This document shows positions 2,694-38,212 of a stretch of 64,000 nt of DNA, piece after piece. Under the pieces are notes generated by a model that was given only the letters and a program-made list of their open reading frames with translations, searched no databases and was not told the DNA's origin. Made by a program: the position numbers and the translations under genes. Position 1 is the first letter of the stretch, and every line of letters begins with the position of its first letter. Source of the stretch: Patescibacteria group bacterium. GTDB lineage: Bacteria; Patescibacteriota; Minisyncoccia; Phycocordibacterales; Zambryskibacteraceae. Location: the NCBI GenBank assembly GCA_004322205.1, contig SCSN01000016.1, positions 27,118 to 91,117 on the forward strand, in the 5' to 3' direction.

Positions 2694-2948
2694 CTATTGC
2701 AGGCTTTCTGATAACCTCTTTTTAAGTTGCGCGGGGACCCGGCCATCTTTTTTGAGAGCGGCTTCACGGCGACGGGTGTCCTTTTCGGCTGAATACGCCT
2801 CATAATATTTTAGCTTAAAAGGTGTGCGGGTTTTGGTAGATTGCACCTTGCCCTCGTTATGACCAGAAAGCCTGCGTCGCAAATCACTGGTCGAACCTAT
2901 GTATAATTTACCGTCTTTCAAACTTTTCAACACATAAAGGTAGTACAT
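2694..2948 (-). CDS. GIY-YIG nuclease domain protein (UvrC-N/Slx1-like small nuclease)
   Basis: The motif is YYLYVLKSLKDGKLYIGSTSDLRRRLSGHN (GIY-YIG ... R ... H N). The start is trimmed to MYYLY. Confidence 0.6.
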   Translation of the reverse strand: MYYLYVLKSLKDGKLYIGSTSDLRRRLSGHNEGKVQSTKTRTPFKLKYYEAYSAEKDTRRREAALKKDGRVPAQLKKRLSESLQ

Positions 2949-3147
2949 TGAGAAGACAATGAAATTATTGGCGTGGGTCGGGCACTGTCCGGAGTTATAA
3001 CCGTACTCGAGGACAGGGGTTATATGGTTACGGTACGCGAAAAAATCAACAATATCAAGCGCGTTGGCAAATTTTATGACTTCCCGATGCCGTACCAGCC
3101 GAAATAGCCAACTCACCCCAAGTCACCCTAACTCACCCGTTTTCGGC

Positions 3148-3426: not shown

Positions 3427-3735
3427 ATGGAAAATGACGACATTGAAGCGGTCGTCCAAGCCGCAAAAAATATACGACTCAAGTACCGGAAAGGCACGCT
3501 CAACCCGCTTTCTTTGCTTCCTGAATCGAAAGCCAAATTGAAAGCCGCGATCAAGGATCGCATCCGGCTATTGTCAGCCTCTTACATATCGCTCGCCGGC
3601 TTCGTCGATGATGACAATGTTCTTTTTGCGGAACGAAACCCCACATCAAAGAAAACCCGAAGAATTTACCTCAAAATAATCGAGGATATGGAAACGGCAC
3701 AAAAAGAACTGCGTTGTTTTCTTAAGAAGATTTGA
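3427..3735 (+). CDS. hypothetical protein (102 aa), 3' end overlaps the RT gene convergently
   Basis: It is an ORF only, with no recognisable domain. Confidence 0.25.
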   Translation: MENDDIEAVVQAAKNIRLKYRKGTLNPLSLLPESKAKLKAAIKDRIRLLSASYISLAGFVDDDNVLFAERNPTSKKTRRIYLKIIEDMETAQKELRCFLKKI

Positions 3736-4729
3736 TCGATTTTTCTTTGAGTATTTTCTGTCTCAACTTCCAGCTATTGCCGTGACTCATAAGACCGAGA
3801 TATGACTGCACCGTTTCTTCCTTTCCATCTTTCGCTTGTATATTCCTGAACATCCGTTTTTTGGTAGTCGTCCTTAAAACCCTGTGATCCGGAAAATGCA
3901 CCCAACCGAGAAAATCCACGCCCGATGCGACGGTCTGAATGAAAATCTTATCCGGATGCATGACGAGCTTGAGCTTGCTTCCCAAAAATTCCTGCATCGC
4001 CGGCAGAATGGTCTCAAGGTACACTTTGTCTGTCGAAAGGACGGCAAAGTCATCTGCATAACGCAGATAATATTTCGCCTTGAGTCGATGCTTCATAAAT
4101 TGGTCGAATTCATTCATGTATATGTTTACCAAAAGCTGGGACGTCAAATTGCCGAGCGGAAGTCCGACGCCTGCGGTTCTTGAATTAAAGCTCCGGACGA
4201 TGATCGACATGAGATCGAGGACATCTTGATCGGGAATATATTTAGCAGCTATATCCAAGAGAATTGCATGGTCGATGTTTGCGAAGAACTTTTTAATATC
4301 GCATTTGAGCACCCATACCGTCCGTATGTTGTTCTCGGATACCATGCCGATGAATTTTCTAAACCTGCGAAGAGCGCGGTGCGTGCCTTTCCCGTCTTGG
4401 CATGAATTCGAGTCGGGAATAAACGTCTTTGCGAAAAATGGCGACAGTTGCCTGTGCAATGCGTGATGCAAAAGCCGGTCCCGAACGTTGGCTTTGTGTA
4501 TATCGCGCGGTTTCGGATCGGCGATTTTGAAATGCTGATATGCCGAATGCGAATATTTTCTCGCGGCAAGCTCGCGGTGGAGCGCGATGATGTTCGTCAT
4601 CAAATCTCGCTCGAATTCCTGCACGTCTTTACGCGTTCGCTTGCCGCGGACGAATTCTTTCCACGCCTCGAGGAGATTTTCGAGCGAGATGATATTATTA
4701 TATGTATGATGAAATCTAATTTTGGGCAT
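3722..4729 (-). CDS. diversity-generating retroelement (DGR) reverse transcriptase
   Basis: RT motifs 1-7 are present. Close colinear similarity to the Bordetella phage bRT as recalled is seen in DSNSCQDGKGTH, VLKCDIKKFFANIDHAILL, GLPLGNLTSQLL (the DGR-type SQ motif), RYADDFAVL (YxDD) and LHP.K...GVDFLGW. The start is set at MPKIRF (4729). The longer ORF to 4834 only adds a translation of the (TTGG)n repeat. Confidence 0.8.
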   Translation of the reverse strand: MPKIRFHHTYNNIISLENLLEAWKEFVRGKRTRKDVQEFERDLMTNIIALHRELAARKYSHSAYQHFKIADPKPRDIHKANVRDRLLHHALHRQLSPFFAKTFIPDSNSCQDGKGTHRALRRFRKFIGMVSENNIRTVWVLKCDIKKFFANIDHAILLDIAAKYIPDQDVLDLMSIIVRSFNSRTAGVGLPLGNLTSQLLVNIYMNEFDQFMKHRLKAKYYLRYADDFAVLSTDKVYLETILPAMQEFLGSKLKLVMHPDKIFIQTVASGVDFLGWVHFPDHRVLRTTTKKRMFRNIQAKDGKEETVQSYLGLMSHGNSWKLRQKILKEKSIKSS

Positions 4730-4730
4730 A

Positions 4731-5150
4731 ATGGTGGTAACCAACCAACCAACCAACCAACCAACCAACCAACCAACCAATAAGATTTTACCGGTTTTAG
4801 GTAAAGTCAAGGAGTCGTACCTTTTGTGGTACAAATTTTATCTGGATTTACCAAAGACGCATCGTCATTCTCTTGGTCAGCGCATCGACACTTTATTTGT
4901 CGAAGTGATAGAGGCGATATCGGCCGCAAGTTTTCTCTCGCCTGCGGAGAAGCATCCGTATGTTCGTCTCGCGATCAAAAAAGCGGACACTCTCCGCGTA
5001 CTTCTTTTGGTGCTTTGGGAAACGAAATCTTTGGACGATAAAAAATACATCGCCCTTTCGGTAAAGCTGGACGAAGCCGGCAAAATGCTCGGCGGATGGA
5101 ACGGACAGCTCGCAAAACAAAACTCTCCAGCGAAAGCCGGAGAGAAATGA
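4731..5150 (+). CDS. avd: DGR accessory variability determinant (Avd; four-helix-bundle protein)
   Basis: It has a conserved four-helix-bundle/Avd-like core (KESYLLWYKFYLDLPKTHRHSLGQRIDTLFVEV...). The C-terminus (GKMLGGWNGQLAKQN) resembles the bAvd C-terminus as recalled. The N-terminus as drawn (ATG 4731) includes the CCAA repeat, and the real start is uncertain. Confidence 0.6.
   Translation: MVVTNQPTNQPTNQPTNKILPVLGKVKESYLLWYKFYLDLPKTHRHSLGQRIDTLFVEVIEAISAASFLSPAEKHPYVRLAIKKADTLRVLLLVLWETKSLDDKKYIALSVKLDEAGKMLGGWNGQLAKQNSPAKAGEK
4741..4780. repeat. tetranucleotide microsatellite (CCAA)10 / (TTGG)10
   Basis: There are ten perfect tandem CCAA units. They lie 12 nt upstream of the RT start on the minus strand and inside the 5' coding region of the plus-strand avd ORF (NQPTNQPTNQPT). 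Confidence 0.95.
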
Positions 5151-5156
5151 AGAGAG

Positions 5157-5282
5157 TTGCGACACGGCGAACGCGAACCCGTTGTCACGATTCCACCTGT
5201 TGTCAGGCCTGTCGTTGTACGCGTTGAGCCAGCGACCATCGTCGTTACGGTTCGCGTTCAGCAAGTTCGGATCGCCGTCGGA
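5157..5282 (-). repeat. DGR template repeat (TR)
   Basis: This 126 bp aligns with 5629-5754 at 111/126 identity. All 15 mismatches fall at positions that are T on the given strand, which is A on the minus (RNA-sense) strand. Confidence 0.85.
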
Positions 5283-5502
5283 TTGCGCGAAGCATCTTCC
5301 ATATCACCGCCCCTCGAATACTCTCAGGGTTGAATCGAATCCGGCATAGTAATGCCTTAATGCCTCGCGCCAAGTATCTTCTTTTTTATTGAAGTTTCTG
5401 CATGCACCACTCTATCCGAAACCGTAGCCGCGGATACTCCCGATGCATGGATACTGGGGTCGGTAGCGGAAAGCCTTGACCGTCCGCATATTCACCTACT
5501 GC

Positions 5503-5545
5503 CACGAATATTATATATGAAATTTATTTTTATGAAAAAATTTAG
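5503..5545 (-). promoter_or_regulatory. candidate sigma70-like promoter reading toward the TR (minus strand)
   Basis: The minus-strand sequence is ttcata-N17-taatat / tataat (the TATAAT-like box is around 5510-5515), lying between the target-gene terminator and the TR. Confidence 0.25.
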
Positions 5546-5572
5546 CCCTGCTCCGACGGATCGGAACAGGGC
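5533..5572 (-). terminator. rho-independent terminator of the DGR target gene
   Basis: The minus-strand hairpin gccctgttccgatccgtcggagcagggc is followed by a T-run (taaatttttt). Confidence 0.6.
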
Positions 5573-5589
5573 TAAGGGCTAAGCTCAAA

Positions 5590-5603
5590 GGGACTGAAGT
5601 CCC
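5590..5603 (-). other. short GC hairpin (gggac-ttca-gtccc) just 3' of the VR; candidate DGR homing hairpin
   Basis: It is a perfect 5-bp stem with a 4-nt loop 25 nt downstream of the VR 3' end. This is analogous in position to the hairpin that follows the VR in Bordetella phage. Confidence 0.35.
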
Positions 5604-5610
5604 AAGAGTC

Positions 5611-6249
5611 TTAGGATTGAGAACTGACTTGCGACACGGCGAACGCGAACCCGTTGTCACGATTCCACCTGCGGCCAGGCCTGACGATGAACGCGTCGAG
5701 CCAGCGACCACCGTCGCTACGGTCCGCGCCCAGCAAGCGCGGATCGCCGCCGGAGTCGTTGATGGGTTCGTGCATTGCGACGATCCACCAGAGGAGACCC
5801 ATGGCTTCGATCTCCTCATCCGTGAACTTCTCACGGATGAGGCAGGCCAGTTCGGCGTTCGGCTTGGACAGCTTGCGCTTGTCGGCTTCGGTGCGGATCT
5901 TCTTCGTGATCCGGTCGTTGTCCTCGAAGAGCATGCCCTTGAGAACGGCGACTTCGGTCGTCACGCCATTGGTCGGCTTGAAGTCCGGCGAACGGAGCAC
6001 CTGCTTGGCGTAGTCTCCGACGCGGAAACCGTTGCCTTCCAGACGCTTGATCCAGTCCTCGCCGGTCGTGCCGTCGCTGGTGACGCTGAAGTAGATGACG
6101 CCGTCTTCCTCGCGCCACGAACGGATCGGTTCGGAAACCGAGAGTTCGTCGCGGAGAAAACGGAGCGCCATGTCGTGGCCACCGAGCTTCTTGACGATGG
6201 CGTTGAGTTGGCCGGCGGTAAGACCGGCGGATGCGAATTCTGTGCTCAT
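5611..6249 (-). CDS. DGR variable (target) protein, C-terminal C-type-lectin-like VR region
   Basis: The 3' terminal 126 bp of the ORF is the VR. The C-terminus RWLDAFIVRPGRRWNRDNGFAFAVSQ has the pattern typical of DGR variable proteins. No obvious signal peptide is present. Confidence 0.7.
   Translation of the reverse strand: MSTEFASAGLTAGQLNAIVKKLGGHDMALRFLRDELSVSEPIRSWREEDGVIYFSVTSDGTTGEDWIKRLEGNGFRVGDYAKQVLRSPDFKPTNGVTTEVAVLKGMLFEDNDRITKKIRTEADKRKLSKPNAELACLIREKFTDEEIEAMGLLWWIVAMHEPINDSGGDPRLLGADRSDGGRWLDAFIVRPGRRWNRDNGFAFAVSQVSSQS
5629..5754 (-). repeat. DGR variable repeat (VR)
   Basis: It is the counterpart of the TR, with substitutions only at TR-adenine positions. At the amino-acid level AAC (Asn) codons in the TR correspond to G/D/S/I/R in the VR. 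Confidence 0.85.
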
Positions 6250-6399
6250 GATTTTATCTCCTGGGCTAATTTGCCCGTTTTCGTTTTCCTCTAATCCGAG
6301 GAGGAACCATGGCCTGTGTGGTCATAGCGAGGAATGGCCTAGTTTTAAGCCACTTTTCGCTATGACCAATCGCAAGTCTTATCAAAGAACTATACCTAC

Positions 6400-7760
6400 T
6401 ATCATACACCTAAACGCCATATTTGTCAATAGTCCCCCGAGGAAATAGGGTTGCCAAATAAAGGCCCAGTTAAGCAAAATTGCTTACGGGTTGCGTGACA
6501 GCTTGGTTGCCGACCGACAATCAAAAACCTATGAACAACAACGTATTAACGTATGCCGAATACCAAAAAAGACTGAAAGAATTGAAAACGCCCGAGGATA
6601 TCGCCTCGTTCGCCCAAGAGCTTATCGCTCCCGCCCTTGCCGGAAATATGACTCCGGAAAAGAAAGAGGATAAGCCGGATGAGCCGAAAGACGAAGCTCC
6701 GGAGGAACCTCGCAAGAAGCGCATCCTTCTGCCGAAGGAAAAACTCTATGCGATCCGAAAGCTTCAACTTACAGACGCGAACGTGATCAGTCCGTGGTAC
6801 GACGTGGTGGGCAACGATACCGATGCGATGGTAATCAGCCTCTACGCCAAAGGTCTGACGACGCGCGACATCTCAAGCTACCTTAAGAATATGCACGGGA
6901 TCGAAATCGCGCAACCGTCGATATCCGCAATCACCGACAAAGTGTTTCCGTTGGTGAAAGAATGGCAGATGCGATCTCTTTCGTCATGCTATCCGGTCGT
7001 ATACCTCGACGGTTTGCATTTCAAAGTCCGCGACGCCGGCAAGATCGTGTCCAAGGTCGCCTACATCGTGCTTGGCATAAATCAGTACGGACAAAAAGAG
7101 GTGCTTGGCATCTGGGTGAGCGAATCCGAGGGATCGAAGTTCTGGATGCATGTGCTCAATGACATGAAGAATCGAGGCGTCGATGACATACTCATCGCTT
7201 GTGTGGACGGTCTGAAAGGTTTTCCGGAAGCGATCAAAGCCATGTATCCTCACGTCGACGTGCAGGTGTGCATCGCGCATCAGATCAGACACACGATCAT
7301 GTTCATTCCGCACAAGGACAAGAAGCAATTCTGCGACGAGCTCAAATCCATTTACACGGCCGCGAATGAGGAAGCTGGCATGGACTCCCTCAAAGACATG
7401 ATGGAACGCTGGCCGCAGTACCGCTCGTATCTCAAGAGCTGGGAAACTCGATGGTCTGACTTGATACCGTTCTTCGGCTATCCGCAACCGATCCGAAAAA
7501 TGGTCTACACCACGAACGCCATCGAAAATCTCAATAGGCAGTTCCGCAAGGTGACCAAGACGACGACTATCTTCCCTCACGATGACGCGCTTATAAAGCT
7601 GTTATGGCTGGCGCAGGCCGACATCACGCAGGGATGGGTGCTTACCACAAGAAATTGGGGAGAAGTTATGGCTCAACTCAATATTCTGTTTCCGGATCGC
7701 GTACACTTCTAATCGCCGATCCAGTCGACATTAATTAACTAACCGGCCGGTCCAGAACTC
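6400..7760 (+). mobile_element. IS256-family insertion sequence (boundaries not resolved)
   Basis: The transposase gene is present, but I could not find convincing terminal inverted repeats by eye. The coordinates are only a bracket. Confidence 0.4.
6531..7712 (+). CDS. IS256-family (Mutator-type) transposase
   Basis: There is full-length similarity to IS256/mutator transposases (...CYPVVYLDGLHFKVRD...LIACVDGLKGFPEAI...CIAHQIRH...). The start is trimmed to MNNNVLTYAEY. Confidence 0.85.
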   Translation: MNNNVLTYAEYQKRLKELKTPEDIASFAQELIAPALAGNMTPEKKEDKPDEPKDEAPEEPRKKRILLPKEKLYAIRKLQLTDANVISPWYDVVGNDTDAMVISLYAKGLTTRDISSYLKNMHGIEIAQPSISAITDKVFPLVKEWQMRSLSSCYPVVYLDGLHFKVRDAGKIVSKVAYIVLGINQYGQKEVLGIWVSESEGSKFWMHVLNDMKNRGVDDILIACVDGLKGFPEAIKAMYPHVDVQVCIAHQIRHTIMFIPHKDKKQFCDELKSIYTAANEEAGMDSLKDMMERWPQYRSYLKSWETRWSDLIPFFGYPQPIRKMVYTTNAIENLNRQFRKVTKTTTIFPHDDALIKLLWLAQADITQGWVLTTRNWGEVMAQLNILFPDRVHF

Positions 7761-16701: not shown

Positions 16702-17691
16702 TCAGAGGTGTGAGCGATACGAAAGAGCGGCGCCGATTACCGGGGCATATTCAAAAGCCTCTTCGCGGGAAAGGTCGGGTACAAATTGCTCAAGAGAAAA
16801 GACATTCTCCCAGACATCGGCAACCTTAAGCGGCAAGCCCAGAGGCGTCAGGGCAGCAGCCAGAGCGGGGTGATCGGCAAATTTCCCGGAGAGAATGAGC
16901 GCTTGCGGCTGCCCTCTCCGGTCACTCTCATCCTCATTTTCATTGTGCCAGTAGGAAATAACTTTCCTTGCCTCGCTTACGAGCTCTCCCGCCCACGGAA
17001 ATTCTCCGCTCTCCAAAGCGTTGGCCGAAAGTGGAATCGTGGCGGAAAAATGAACAGCGTTCTTGCGGACAACATATACCCCGACCTTCCGGGAAAAGAT
17101 GTGGATGACAGCATAGACAGCCGGATCATCGTGAGCCACCACTGCTTTGACTACCGCTTGCGACTCAATCTCAAAATGAAAGGGCGAGAGCTCAGCCGAG
17201 CGATAGACATCGAGGAACGAGCGGACAACGTGCTCGGGCACTACAGAGACCGCTACCTCAAATGGCTCCCGCCCCTCGCCCCCATCGCGAAGAACAGCAA
17301 AATCAAAAACCGCCTCCGAAAGTGAGAGGGGGACATTTTCCTCAATCGTAAACTCCACCGCGGTGCGGATGTCTCGTTCTCCGGCGCGGGAGATTTTAGT
17401 TTGAAAAAGATAGGCTTTCTCGTCCGGCAGAACGCAGCGAATATAGTGAAGGTCAAAGCGCTTGCGAAGCGAAGTCAGGGCGGTTGTGAGCTCTTGAGGT
17501 TTTTTAATTTCGCCTGAGACCAAGGTGCCTTCGGGTAGGGTCTCTTCGCCGTATCGTTTGAGAACTATATGGTCACCGACGTGCTGAAATTCAACACACC
17601 TTGCATGAGTATCTTCTAGAACTAGTCCTGGAGAGGGCATTTCCAAAAACTTCGGTGTCGGAAAAAAGTCAAAAAAGCTGCGGCTGGGCAT
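16702..17691 (-). CDS. pilM: type IV pilus assembly ATPase-fold protein PilM
   Basis: It has an actin-like fold with a PilM-like length and motifs and leads the pilMNO arrangement. Confidence 0.7.
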   Translation of the reverse strand: MPSRSFFDFFPTPKFLEMPSPGLVLEDTHARCVEFQHVGDHIVLKRYGEETLPEGTLVSGEIKKPQELTTALTSLRKRFDLHYIRCVLPDEKAYLFQTKISRAGERDIRTAVEFTIEENVPLSLSEAVFDFAVLRDGGEGREPFEVAVSVVPEHVVRSFLDVYRSAELSPFHFEIESQAVVKAVVAHDDPAVYAVIHIFSRKVGVYVVRKNAVHFSATIPLSANALESGEFPWAGELVSEARKVISYWHNENEDESDRRGQPQALILSGKFADHPALAAALTPLGLPLKVADVWENVFSLEQFVPDLSREEAFEYAPVIGAALSYRSHL

Positions 17692-37712: not shown

Positions 37713-38212
37713 CGAATGCTCGGAGAGAAAAACTAAAGCGGGTGGCGGGTATCGACCCCGGCTACGGGCGAGCGGGAGTAGCGATTGTCGGGCGAGAGAG
37801 AGGCAAGGAGAAACTCGTCTTCTCCAAATGTCTTACTACCAGTCAATCTCTCTCTCATGAGAAACGGTTGGAGCGCATCGGGGACGAAGTGGGGAAACTC
37901 CTGCGGCGCTATCGTCCGGAGGCAGTGGCAGTTGAAAAGCTCTTCTTTGCCGCCAATCAAAAAACCGCCCTGCAGGTTGCCGAGGCGCGCGGGGTAATTC
38001 TGTCCGAGGCAGCGAAGCAGAACCTGCCGGTCCACGAATTTACTCCTCTCGAGATCAAACTTGCCGTCACCGGCGACGGCCGCGCCGACAAGCGGCAGGT
38101 GATCGCTATGGTAGAGCGCCTGATCGCAATCAAAAGAGAGAAACCGCAGGACGATGAGTACGACGCTATTGCCGCTGCTCTAACTCTCCTTGCCACTATC
38201 CGCTCTCACTAG
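37709..38212 (+). CDS. ruvC: crossover junction endodeoxyribonuclease RuvC
   Basis: GIDPGYGRAGVAIV...VEKLFF...EYDAIAAAL fits the RuvC catalytic residues. Confidence 0.85.
   Translation: MTNARREKLKRVAGIDPGYGRAGVAIVGRERGKEKLVFSKCLTTSQSLSHEKRLERIGDEVGKLLRRYRPEAVAVEKLFFAANQKTALQVAEARGVILSEAAKQNLPVHEFTPLEIKLAVTGDGRADKRQVIAMVERLIAIKREKPQDDEYDAIAAALTLLATIRSH

Follow-up and report, generated by a model that had tools for sequence, protein, structure and literature searches.

The subject of this report is a simple repeat in a diversity-generating retroelement (DGR) of a Patescibacteria genome, which lies in a stretch of 64,000 nt (contig SCSN01000016.1 of assembly GCA_004322205.1, positions 27,118-91,117, forward strand), hereafter the window. 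The locus is a complete DGR with a reverse transcriptase (RT) gene, the accessory gene avd, an adenine-specific pair of template repeat (TR) and variable repeat (VR), and a target gene. At the junction of the divergent RT and avd genes we found a perfect tetranucleotide repeat, (AACC)10.5 or (CCAA)10, at 4739-4780. From a comparison of this junction with those of related elements we consider it fairly probable that avd contains, in this repeat, a contingency (phase-variation) tract, and the related elements probably possess such an inherent random on/off switch as well. What would be new here is a contingency-type tract acting on the accessory gene of a mutagenic retroelement, with the promoter and the start of that gene antisense within the RT gene. 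No publication describing such a repeat switch was found in full-text searches on DGRs and on leaderless mRNAs of Patescibacteria, and an earlier mention may exist.

The repeat at the RT/avd junction

Tandem Repeats Finder reported the array at 4739-4780 with a period of 4, 10.5 copies of AACC, 100% matches and zero indels, and within it are the ten perfect CCAA units (4741-4780) that a preliminary description of this DNA had pointed out. The 12-mer CCAACCAACCAA from the repeat occurs 8 times in the window, always within the array, and 0 times in 100 dinucleotide-preserving shuffles. Other simple repeats in the 64 kb amount to just (TC)5 at 37847, and there is no C or G run of 8 nt or longer across the window. 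The RT start codon (ATG, 4729-4727, minus strand) is separated from the array by 9 nt (4730-4738), and the distance from the first CCAA unit at 4741 to 4729 is the 12 nt that had been given before. On the plus strand, the array stands between the ATGs at 4706 and 4731 and the conserved Avd core at 4785, and its unit is not a multiple of 3.

Related elements were collected in two ways: 80 loci came from GTDB species representatives by their RT, out of at least 566 found, nearly all of which are labelled Patescibacteria or CPR (Candidate Phyla Radiation), and 80 further loci came from metagenomes via the Avd core, with about 190 related elements overall (individual loci are given L numbers below). 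RT and avd are divergent in every fetched locus (80 + 80), and 148 loci have a usable junction. Among these, 128/148 carry a C run or another simple repeat at the homologous position: C runs 7-14 nt long, with the mode at 9-10 (avd strand), in 101/148, tetranucleotide repeats (AACC, AATC, AGCC, AGTC, AACG) in 21/148, dinucleotide repeats in 5/148 and a heptanucleotide repeat in 1/148, while the remainder are degenerate C-rich remnants. The end of the tract is always 2-7 nt before the codons of the conserved Avd residues Ile19-Leu20-Pro21, and the tract is 8-20 nt from the RT ATG. Runs of C or G of at least 8 nt were found 96 times at the junction vs 3 times in the other ~820 kb of the relatives' loci (830 kb in total), which is a density about 2,700-fold over that of the flanking DNA, and the avd genes of the carriers are 27-98% identical. 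A G-quadruplex or another sequence property shared by the tracts was considered and rejected, since the GATT, GACT, CGTT, TG and TC repeats (RT strand) have no G runs, and several units are free of G and of C runs on both strands. With no common sequence property among the units, it is repetitiveness itself that is conserved.

Moreover, the number of units differs between sequences that are otherwise the same. With 200-nt flanks that are 100% identical, L096 has (TCAG)7 and L097 (TCAG)5, and likewise L116 has C9 and L122 C10. Among loci with identical RT proteins, set P0278 has G11 in L163 and G9 in L164, set P0297 has (GT)8 in L177 and L180 and (GT)7 in L178, L179 and L181, and set P0338 has G9 in L183-185 and G10 in L186. 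These five sets differ in the tract alone. The junctions of tract-less controls (two RT proteins, six contigs each) are all identical, and a short (CTGG)3 is the same on two contigs. The nearest AACC relatives of the window carry 2.75, 3.75, 11.5 and 12.75 units, and in one relative with flanks 94-96% identical to the window AATC replaces AACC. Counting units in sibling sequences, which the preliminary description had proposed as a check, thus returned a variable repeat number. Two side observations concern contig structure: L182 (P0297) belongs to a contig that terminates within the GT run, and L102, which has the longest array (17 units), shows unrelated sequence directly upstream of its avd start; in both cases the assembly may have broken because of repeat heterogeneity.

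The start and the reading phases of avd

The preliminary description had drawn avd as the plus-strand open reading frame (ORF) 4731-5150, whose product begins MVVTNQPTNQPTNQPTNKILPVL and runs on into an Avd-type protein. This frame does contain the repeat and is open in the window allele, but its start does not hold: ATG 4731 is not conserved, its counterpart being ACG in L081, L086, L088 and L114, four of the closest relatives. The conserved start is the ATG at 4706, the complement of the CAT codon of RT His8, which in the window opens a 25-codon ORF (4706-4783, plus strand). From this ATG the RT and avd frames overlap head-to-head by 24 nt (4706-4729), and this stretch is dual-coded. An extended -10 box, TGATATTAT (4690-4698, plus strand, antisense within RT codons 11-14), precedes ATG 4706 by 7 nt, and this is the arrangement of a leaderless start, with a -10 element about 7 nt before the ATG and no Shine-Dalgarno sequence.

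The same arrangement is widespread among the relatives. Upstream of the tract, TAnnnT-N6-8-ATG is present in 96/118 loci vs 12% of 944 control windows taken on the same strand deeper within the RT genes, and the stricter TGnTAnnnT-N7-ATG in 75/118 loci vs 0/944 controls. Synonymous codon choice in the RT gene agrees with this. His at RT residues 4-12 is encoded as CAT in 114 cases and as CAC in 1, vs 61% CAT elsewhere in the same genes, and RT Ile13, whose codon supplies the G of the TG motif, is ATC in 63/91 vs a background of 31%. The adjacent Tyr10 is unbiased (TAT 31, TAC 30), which argues that the CAT excess is not a general AT bias of the 5' end. The antisense ATG and the extended -10 are therefore under selection at synonymous sites, and this places the tract inside the avd reading frame. 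The ATG equivalent to 4706 reads through into Avd in relatives (L081, L082, L086/L114, L088 and L084/L001).

Avd homology, alignment conservation and predicted helix 1 all begin just after the tract. An avd start at that point was rejected for the window's clade, in which Leu20 is TTA and 24/28 loci have no ATG, GTG or TTG between the tract and helix 1; ATT at Ile19 was rejected as well, relatives having ATC or ACT instead. The leaderless reading is further supported because real genes elsewhere in the window also have this signature in front of them: 8/14 TGnTAnnnT sites open ORFs of at least 100 aa, vs 16% of all ATGs. Examples are at 17691(-), 1926(-), 32836(+), 62785(-), 39958(-) and 22611(+), with 6-8 nt to the start and no Shine-Dalgarno sequence. 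This suggests that leaderless mRNAs are widespread in this Patescibacterium. From these signatures we infer that the avd mRNA is leaderless and translated from a 5'-terminal AUG at 4706. The preliminary description had named two outcomes that would speak against a switch, an invariant repeat number and an avd that initiates downstream of the repeat. The repeat number varies, and the conserved TGnTAnnnT-N7-ATG, the synonymous-site selection and the repeat-less loci in frame map the start upstream of the repeat.

The frame that opens at the conserved ATG encodes PPP in poly-C loci, or peptides of the NQPT, SQPA or HT kind, and then either continues into Avd or meets an early stop. Among tract-bearing unique junctions, 26 are in frame (ON) and 68 out of frame (OFF), and the three phases are uniformly represented (chi-square p=0.30). 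Among tract-less unique junctions 8 are in frame and 2 out, and both of the latter retain a C5 remnant. Loss of the tract is associated with the in-frame state (Fisher p=0.002 for unique junctions, p=1e-7 for all loci), with p-values that are inflated because the sequences are phylogenetically related, a point that weakens the case for a switch. The core ORF of avd is intact in 142/144 loci. Natural pairs illustrate both states: L116 (C9) reads MSELDFTHTAKCTPPQRLLPLL and on into Avd (ON), whereas L122 (C10) terminates (OFF), and L186 (G10) is in frame whereas L183-185 (G9) are out. The statement in the preliminary description that gain or loss of a 4-nt unit would shift the avd frame is borne out in the relatives, where ON and OFF alleles with an intact avd were found.

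In the window itself, ATG 4706 opens MMKSNFGHNGGNQPTNQPTNQPTNQ and this frame ends at TAA 4781-4783, directly after the repeat. Frame 1 meets TAA at 4738, and the avd frame is joined solely to ATG 4731 and GTG 4734. With 9.5 or 12.5 units, ATG 4706 would be in frame with Avd. Because the conserved start is out of frame at 10.5 units and ATG 4731 is not conserved, the window allele is predicted to be OFF or weakly expressed, at most from the internal ATG 4731.

Some lineages depart from the common architecture. In L017, L095, L144, L153, L156 and L159 the C run is set apart from the RT start by an insert of 25-40 nt, which contains a -10-like box and an ATG of its own (in L156, ATG-N15-C10); avd no longer overlaps RT in these loci and its frame still traverses the C run. 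L087 and L165-L170 have a decayed repeat (AATCAACCATT) and ATA in place of the avd ATG, the RT having Tyr for His. In this lineage the frame still runs on into Avd, no difference is seen among six independent contigs, and avd may be inactivated or use a non-AUG start. The lengths that gene callers assign to the avd family are scattered (86, 92, 97, 108, 117, 130-142 and 217-226 aa in protein clusters P0003-P0039), which reflects the variable tract phase together with the open antisense RT frame. The avd starts given in public annotation can therefore not be relied on for this family, and the overlapping leaderless start is missed.

Taken together, we propose that avd would be transcribed from the extended -10 promoter at 4690-4698, which is embedded in the opening codons of the divergent RT gene, giving a leaderless mRNA on which translation would begin at the 5'-terminal AUG (4706). 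The ribosome would have to traverse the tract to reach the four-helix bundle (ILPVL, 4785), and the tract would encode merely a disordered linker, NQPT repeats in the window and PPP in the poly-C relatives. Slipped-strand gain or loss of a unit (4 nt in the window, 1 nt in the poly-C relatives) would change the phase, such that one length in three would give Avd. Since Avd and RT act as a complex in the Bordetella DGR and cDNA synthesis depends on both, the tract should switch mutagenic retrohoming, and would do so stochastically and reversibly between ON and OFF. In its widest form the proposal is that a large Patescibacteria DGR family (at least 566 species-level genomes, thousands of RT homologues) has a selected hypermutable tract in a leaderless avd, by which the retroelement itself would be phase-variable, its lineages moving stochastically between diversification with Avd ON and retention of the current VR variant with Avd OFF, the tract possibly co-tuning RT via overlapping head-to-head promoters; we hold the chances of this wider proposal to be evenly balanced.

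How cellular DGRs restrain the continuous mutation of their targets and retain useful variants is an open question. To our knowledge, no regulatory switch is known for the abundant DGRs of Patescibacteria. About 80% of the RTs of Patescibacteria are DGR RTs (PMC8632793). If the proposal is true, a simple-sequence switch in avd would be a mechanism for alternating diversification and fixation, a heritable and reversible second-order control of targeted hypermutation, and contingency loci and retrohoming, two classical routes of localised hypervariation, would be joined in one element. The tract and the VR are within 1 kb of each other, close enough for one read to connect phase and VR diversity.

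Other components of the element

The DGR reverse transcriptase is encoded at 3722-4729 on the minus strand (Pfam RVT_1, E=2e-23) and its translation shows the LGNLTSQ and YADD motifs. Its start is kept as ATG in 97/107 relatives, and its homologues number thousands, from Patescibacteria. The conserved Avd core (ILPVL to the stop, 4785-5150, plus strand) matched Pfam bAvd with E=3e-9 and 37.6 bits, slightly below the cut-off of 40, and the homologues of Avd carry PF22296. Conservation in the alignment begins at K18/I19. The AlphaFold2 (AF2) model of Avd has a predicted local distance difference test (pLDDT) score of 84 with helices at residues 20-37, 42-67, 71-97 and 103-130, whereas the repeat-encoded residues 1-16 have pLDDT <50. 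Foldseek aligned the model to the Avd chains of 4DWL and 8UB7 with TM scores of 0.86-0.90; when the Avd alignment was run as a profile against PDB sequences there was no match, and the fold search was required. The assignment to Avd draws on the near-cut-off Pfam match, the four predicted helices and the two structural matches together.

The TR (5149-5282, minus strand) and the VR (5621-5754, minus strand) form a 134-nt repeat, the VR forming the 3' part of the target gene (6249-5611), with its end 10 nt ahead of the stop codon. All 15/15 substitutions in the body of TR and VR are at TR adenines (minus strand), and the remaining differences are confined to the last 8 nt. This adenine-specific divergence is indirect support for mutagenic retrohoming by the window DGR. 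Right after the 3' end of the TR there is a hairpin with a T run (5113-5144, minus strand; CTCTCCGGC-TTTC-GCTGGAGAG, then TTTTGTTTTG), which is antisense to the C-terminal avd codons NSPAKAGEK and stop, a tail that AF2 predicts to be disordered. The hairpin is conserved at the corresponding place in L001-L160 with changed inner stem pairs: a folding energy of -8 kcal/mol or below is reached by 95/110 unique sequences, and the mean folding energy is -11.9 kcal/mol vs -3.4 for shuffles. The hairpin looks like a terminator or 3' element of the TR RNA that is dual-coded with avd. Upstream of the TR, a promoter-like TTTTCA-17-TATAAT (5510-5538, minus strand) is a candidate promoter of the TR RNA, and it lies between the TR and a 15-bp hairpin/terminator of the target gene (5542-5575, minus strand). 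An Rfam scan of 3500-6400 gave a single chance miRNA match and nothing else.

As to the neighbouring genes, a transposase gene of the IS256/Mutator family (6480-7712, plus strand, Pfam E=1e-84) adjoins the DGR target gene on the far side and is preceded by a 23-nt inverted repeat (6319-6368), and a GIY-YIG domain protein is encoded at 2694-3116 (minus strand) on the other flank of the RT gene.

Alternative explanations and known systems

The tract might also act on the RT side of the junction. Read along the RT strand, the repeat is directly preceded by a candidate RT promoter (4785-4810, minus strand) composed of TTGACT (4810-4805), 14 nt and TAAAAT (4790-4785), which is weak because its spacer is short, and a consensus promoter scan did not call it. 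TAAAAT, at avd codons 19-20, is kept as TAnnnT in 20/20 repeat-clade relatives inspected (TAAAAT, TAAGAT, TAAAGT, TATAAT). If it is the RT -10, (GGUU)n would be the RT leader, and the repeat is predicted to pair with ACCACC and the AUG region at -7 kcal/mol when it has 3 units and at -16 when it has 10. In the poly-G class, TAnnnT is found 6-8 nt before the RT ATG in 32/80 loci and directly abuts the G run in 20, in which case the run would occupy the RT promoter spacer. A -35 with constant spacing over the poly-G run was looked for and nothing convincing was seen, tract length correlates weakly with that of the adjacent segment (rho -0.38), and in the window's clade neither a -10 nor a Shine-Dalgarno sequence is present between the repeat and the RT ATG (0/27). 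Further, the conserved terminator-like hairpin after the TR and the promoter-like site before it indicate that the TR RNA is probably a separate transcript, so that RT would need its own promoter. An effect of tract length on RT expression via a promoter or the 5' untranslated region, which the preliminary description had also put forward, is a plausible lead: the -10-like hexamers abutting some poly-G runs speak for it, and the missing -35 and the empty segment in the window's clade speak against it.

These observations would also fit a different explanation, in which the tract is selected and hypermutable but acts mainly on transcription, as RT promoter spacer or 5' leader between shared head-to-head promoters, its length adjusting RT alone or RT together with avd, while Avd starts after the tract and the ATG-led frame is an upstream ORF. 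The promoter-like hexamers of the poly-G RT genes, TAAAAT with a (GGUU)10 leader whose pairing grows with the units, the need of RT for its own promoter, and a canonical start just past the tract in 80/101 poly-C loci could all be read in this way. We nevertheless regard it as unlikely, because no convincing -35 accompanies the hexamers, the lengths of the tract and of the adjacent segment are only loosely constrained, the window's clade lacks both the RT signals and, in 24/28 loci, a post-tract start, and the 114:1 CAT bias and the in-frame tract-less loci are left unexplained. It should be noted that an effect on transcription and a switch of the avd frame are not mutually exclusive.

Recoding deserves mention since homopolymer slippage rescues frameshifted genes in some bacteria, the C9-C11 runs encode CCC-rich stretches, and avd is intact although the majority of loci are out of frame. 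On this view slippage of RNA polymerase or frameshifting of the ribosome at the tract would bring a fixed fraction of transcripts back into the avd frame and so hold Avd at a constant low level, and the length variation of the DNA would be incidental. The unique poly-C loci need +1 in 32 cases, -1 in 24 and none in 15, so there is no single direction; tetra-, di- and heptanucleotide repeats, which are not known recoding substrates, substitute in the window's clade; and length differences are seen directly in the DNA. Programmed recoding with one shift direction at a conserved slippery site was rejected, and recoding in general appears very improbable to us. We give similarly little credence to a neutral mutational hotspot whose phase is irrelevant, for instance a by-product of overlapping head-to-head promoters. 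The uniform distribution of phases and the degenerate tracts in several lineages would suit it, but perfect C8-C14 runs persist at one site across species with the ~2,700-fold density excess, differing repeat sequences occupy the same site, and tract-less lineages are fixed in frame with a conserved ATG. An artefact of sequencing or assembly might be suspected from the error-prone nature of homopolymers and microsatellites and from L182, which ends inside its GT run; yet ~130 independent assemblies, coming from many projects and assemblers, contain the tract, the 8-nt difference between (TCAG)7 and (TCAG)5 is not error-like, and the repeat-less controls are invariant, which makes this explanation extremely unlikely.

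Several points weigh against a phase-variable avd. Switching within a population is deduced from differences between samples, and the leaderless start is read from sequence signatures. No identical-flank sibling was found for the window strain, exact look-ups of its RT (335 and 370 aa) and Avd being unmatched, and differences of +/-1 in the G9-G11 runs could be sequencing or assembly error, whereas the 2- and 4-nt cases cannot. In the poly-C class, the start just past the tract in 80/101 loci is TTG, GTG or ATG (TTG at Leu20 in 54), and Avd might there also be made from an internal start regardless of phase. Loci without a post-tract start show no enrichment for an in-frame upstream start. In addition, ON alleles make up ~28%, which is not above chance and fits free switching but also a tract whose phase is irrelevant.

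The contingency reading of the tract can be set beside known systems. The DGR of Bordetella phage BPP-1 is organised as avd-TR-brt (structures 4DWL and 8UB7; reviewed in PMC8632793). The window element resembles it in RT, in Avd (TM 0.86-0.90), in the adenine-specific TR/VR and in a target gene whose 3' end holds the VR, and differs in that avd and RT are divergent and overlap at the RT 5' end, that the TR is on the opposite strand just beyond the avd stop, and that avd contains a hypermutable tract, none being described for BPP-1. As in programmed homopolymer slippage or frameshifting, a homopolymer within an ORF separates the start from an out-of-frame domain, but here the required shift direction is inconsistent and non-homopolymer repeats replace the run.

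Repeats such as (TA)n in hifA/hifB of H. influenzae and poly-C in fim of Bordetella are placed in promoter spacers or between divergent genes. The poly-G of porA in N. meningitidis (PMC3639595) belongs to this kind of repeat. The tract described here is similarly between divergent genes and abuts an RT -10-like hexamer in about a quarter of the poly-G relatives; unlike those repeats, it was not found to be bracketed by a -35/-10 pair, and in the window's clade the repeat is downstream of the candidate -10.

Likeness is also seen to the tetranucleotide contingency loci of Haemophilus influenzae, such as lic1A (CAAT), lic2A and lgtC. As in these loci, a perfect tetranucleotide repeat is placed a few codons past the start, its unit is not a multiple of 3 and its number differs between strains; as in lic1, two of the frames have an ATG (here 4706 and 4731) and the third has a stop, a layout from which strong, weak and off states would follow. 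The general role of tetranucleotide simple sequence repeats is described in PMC2651432. Unlike in H. influenzae, the presumed target is the accessory factor of a mutagenic retroelement and not an enzyme for surface structures, the start looks leaderless and is antisense inside another gene, and the host is an uncultivated Patescibacterium. The parallel with contingency loci that the preliminary description had drawn accordingly stands at the sequence level, in the position of the repeat, in its polymorphism and in the coexistence of ON and OFF alleles with an intact avd.

Finally, poly-G/C tracts are found inside phase-variable ORFs of Campylobacter, Neisseria and Helicobacter (for example PMC8355987 and PMC5084427). 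The C7-C14 runs in the 5' part of avd, with ON and OFF alleles of an intact gene and +/-1 nt polymorphism between identical backgrounds, are like these tracts. In contrast to tracts scattered over surface genes, the avd tract occupies one orthologous site across many species, in the accessory gene of a retroelement, behind a leaderless-looking antisense start and in an uncultivated host.

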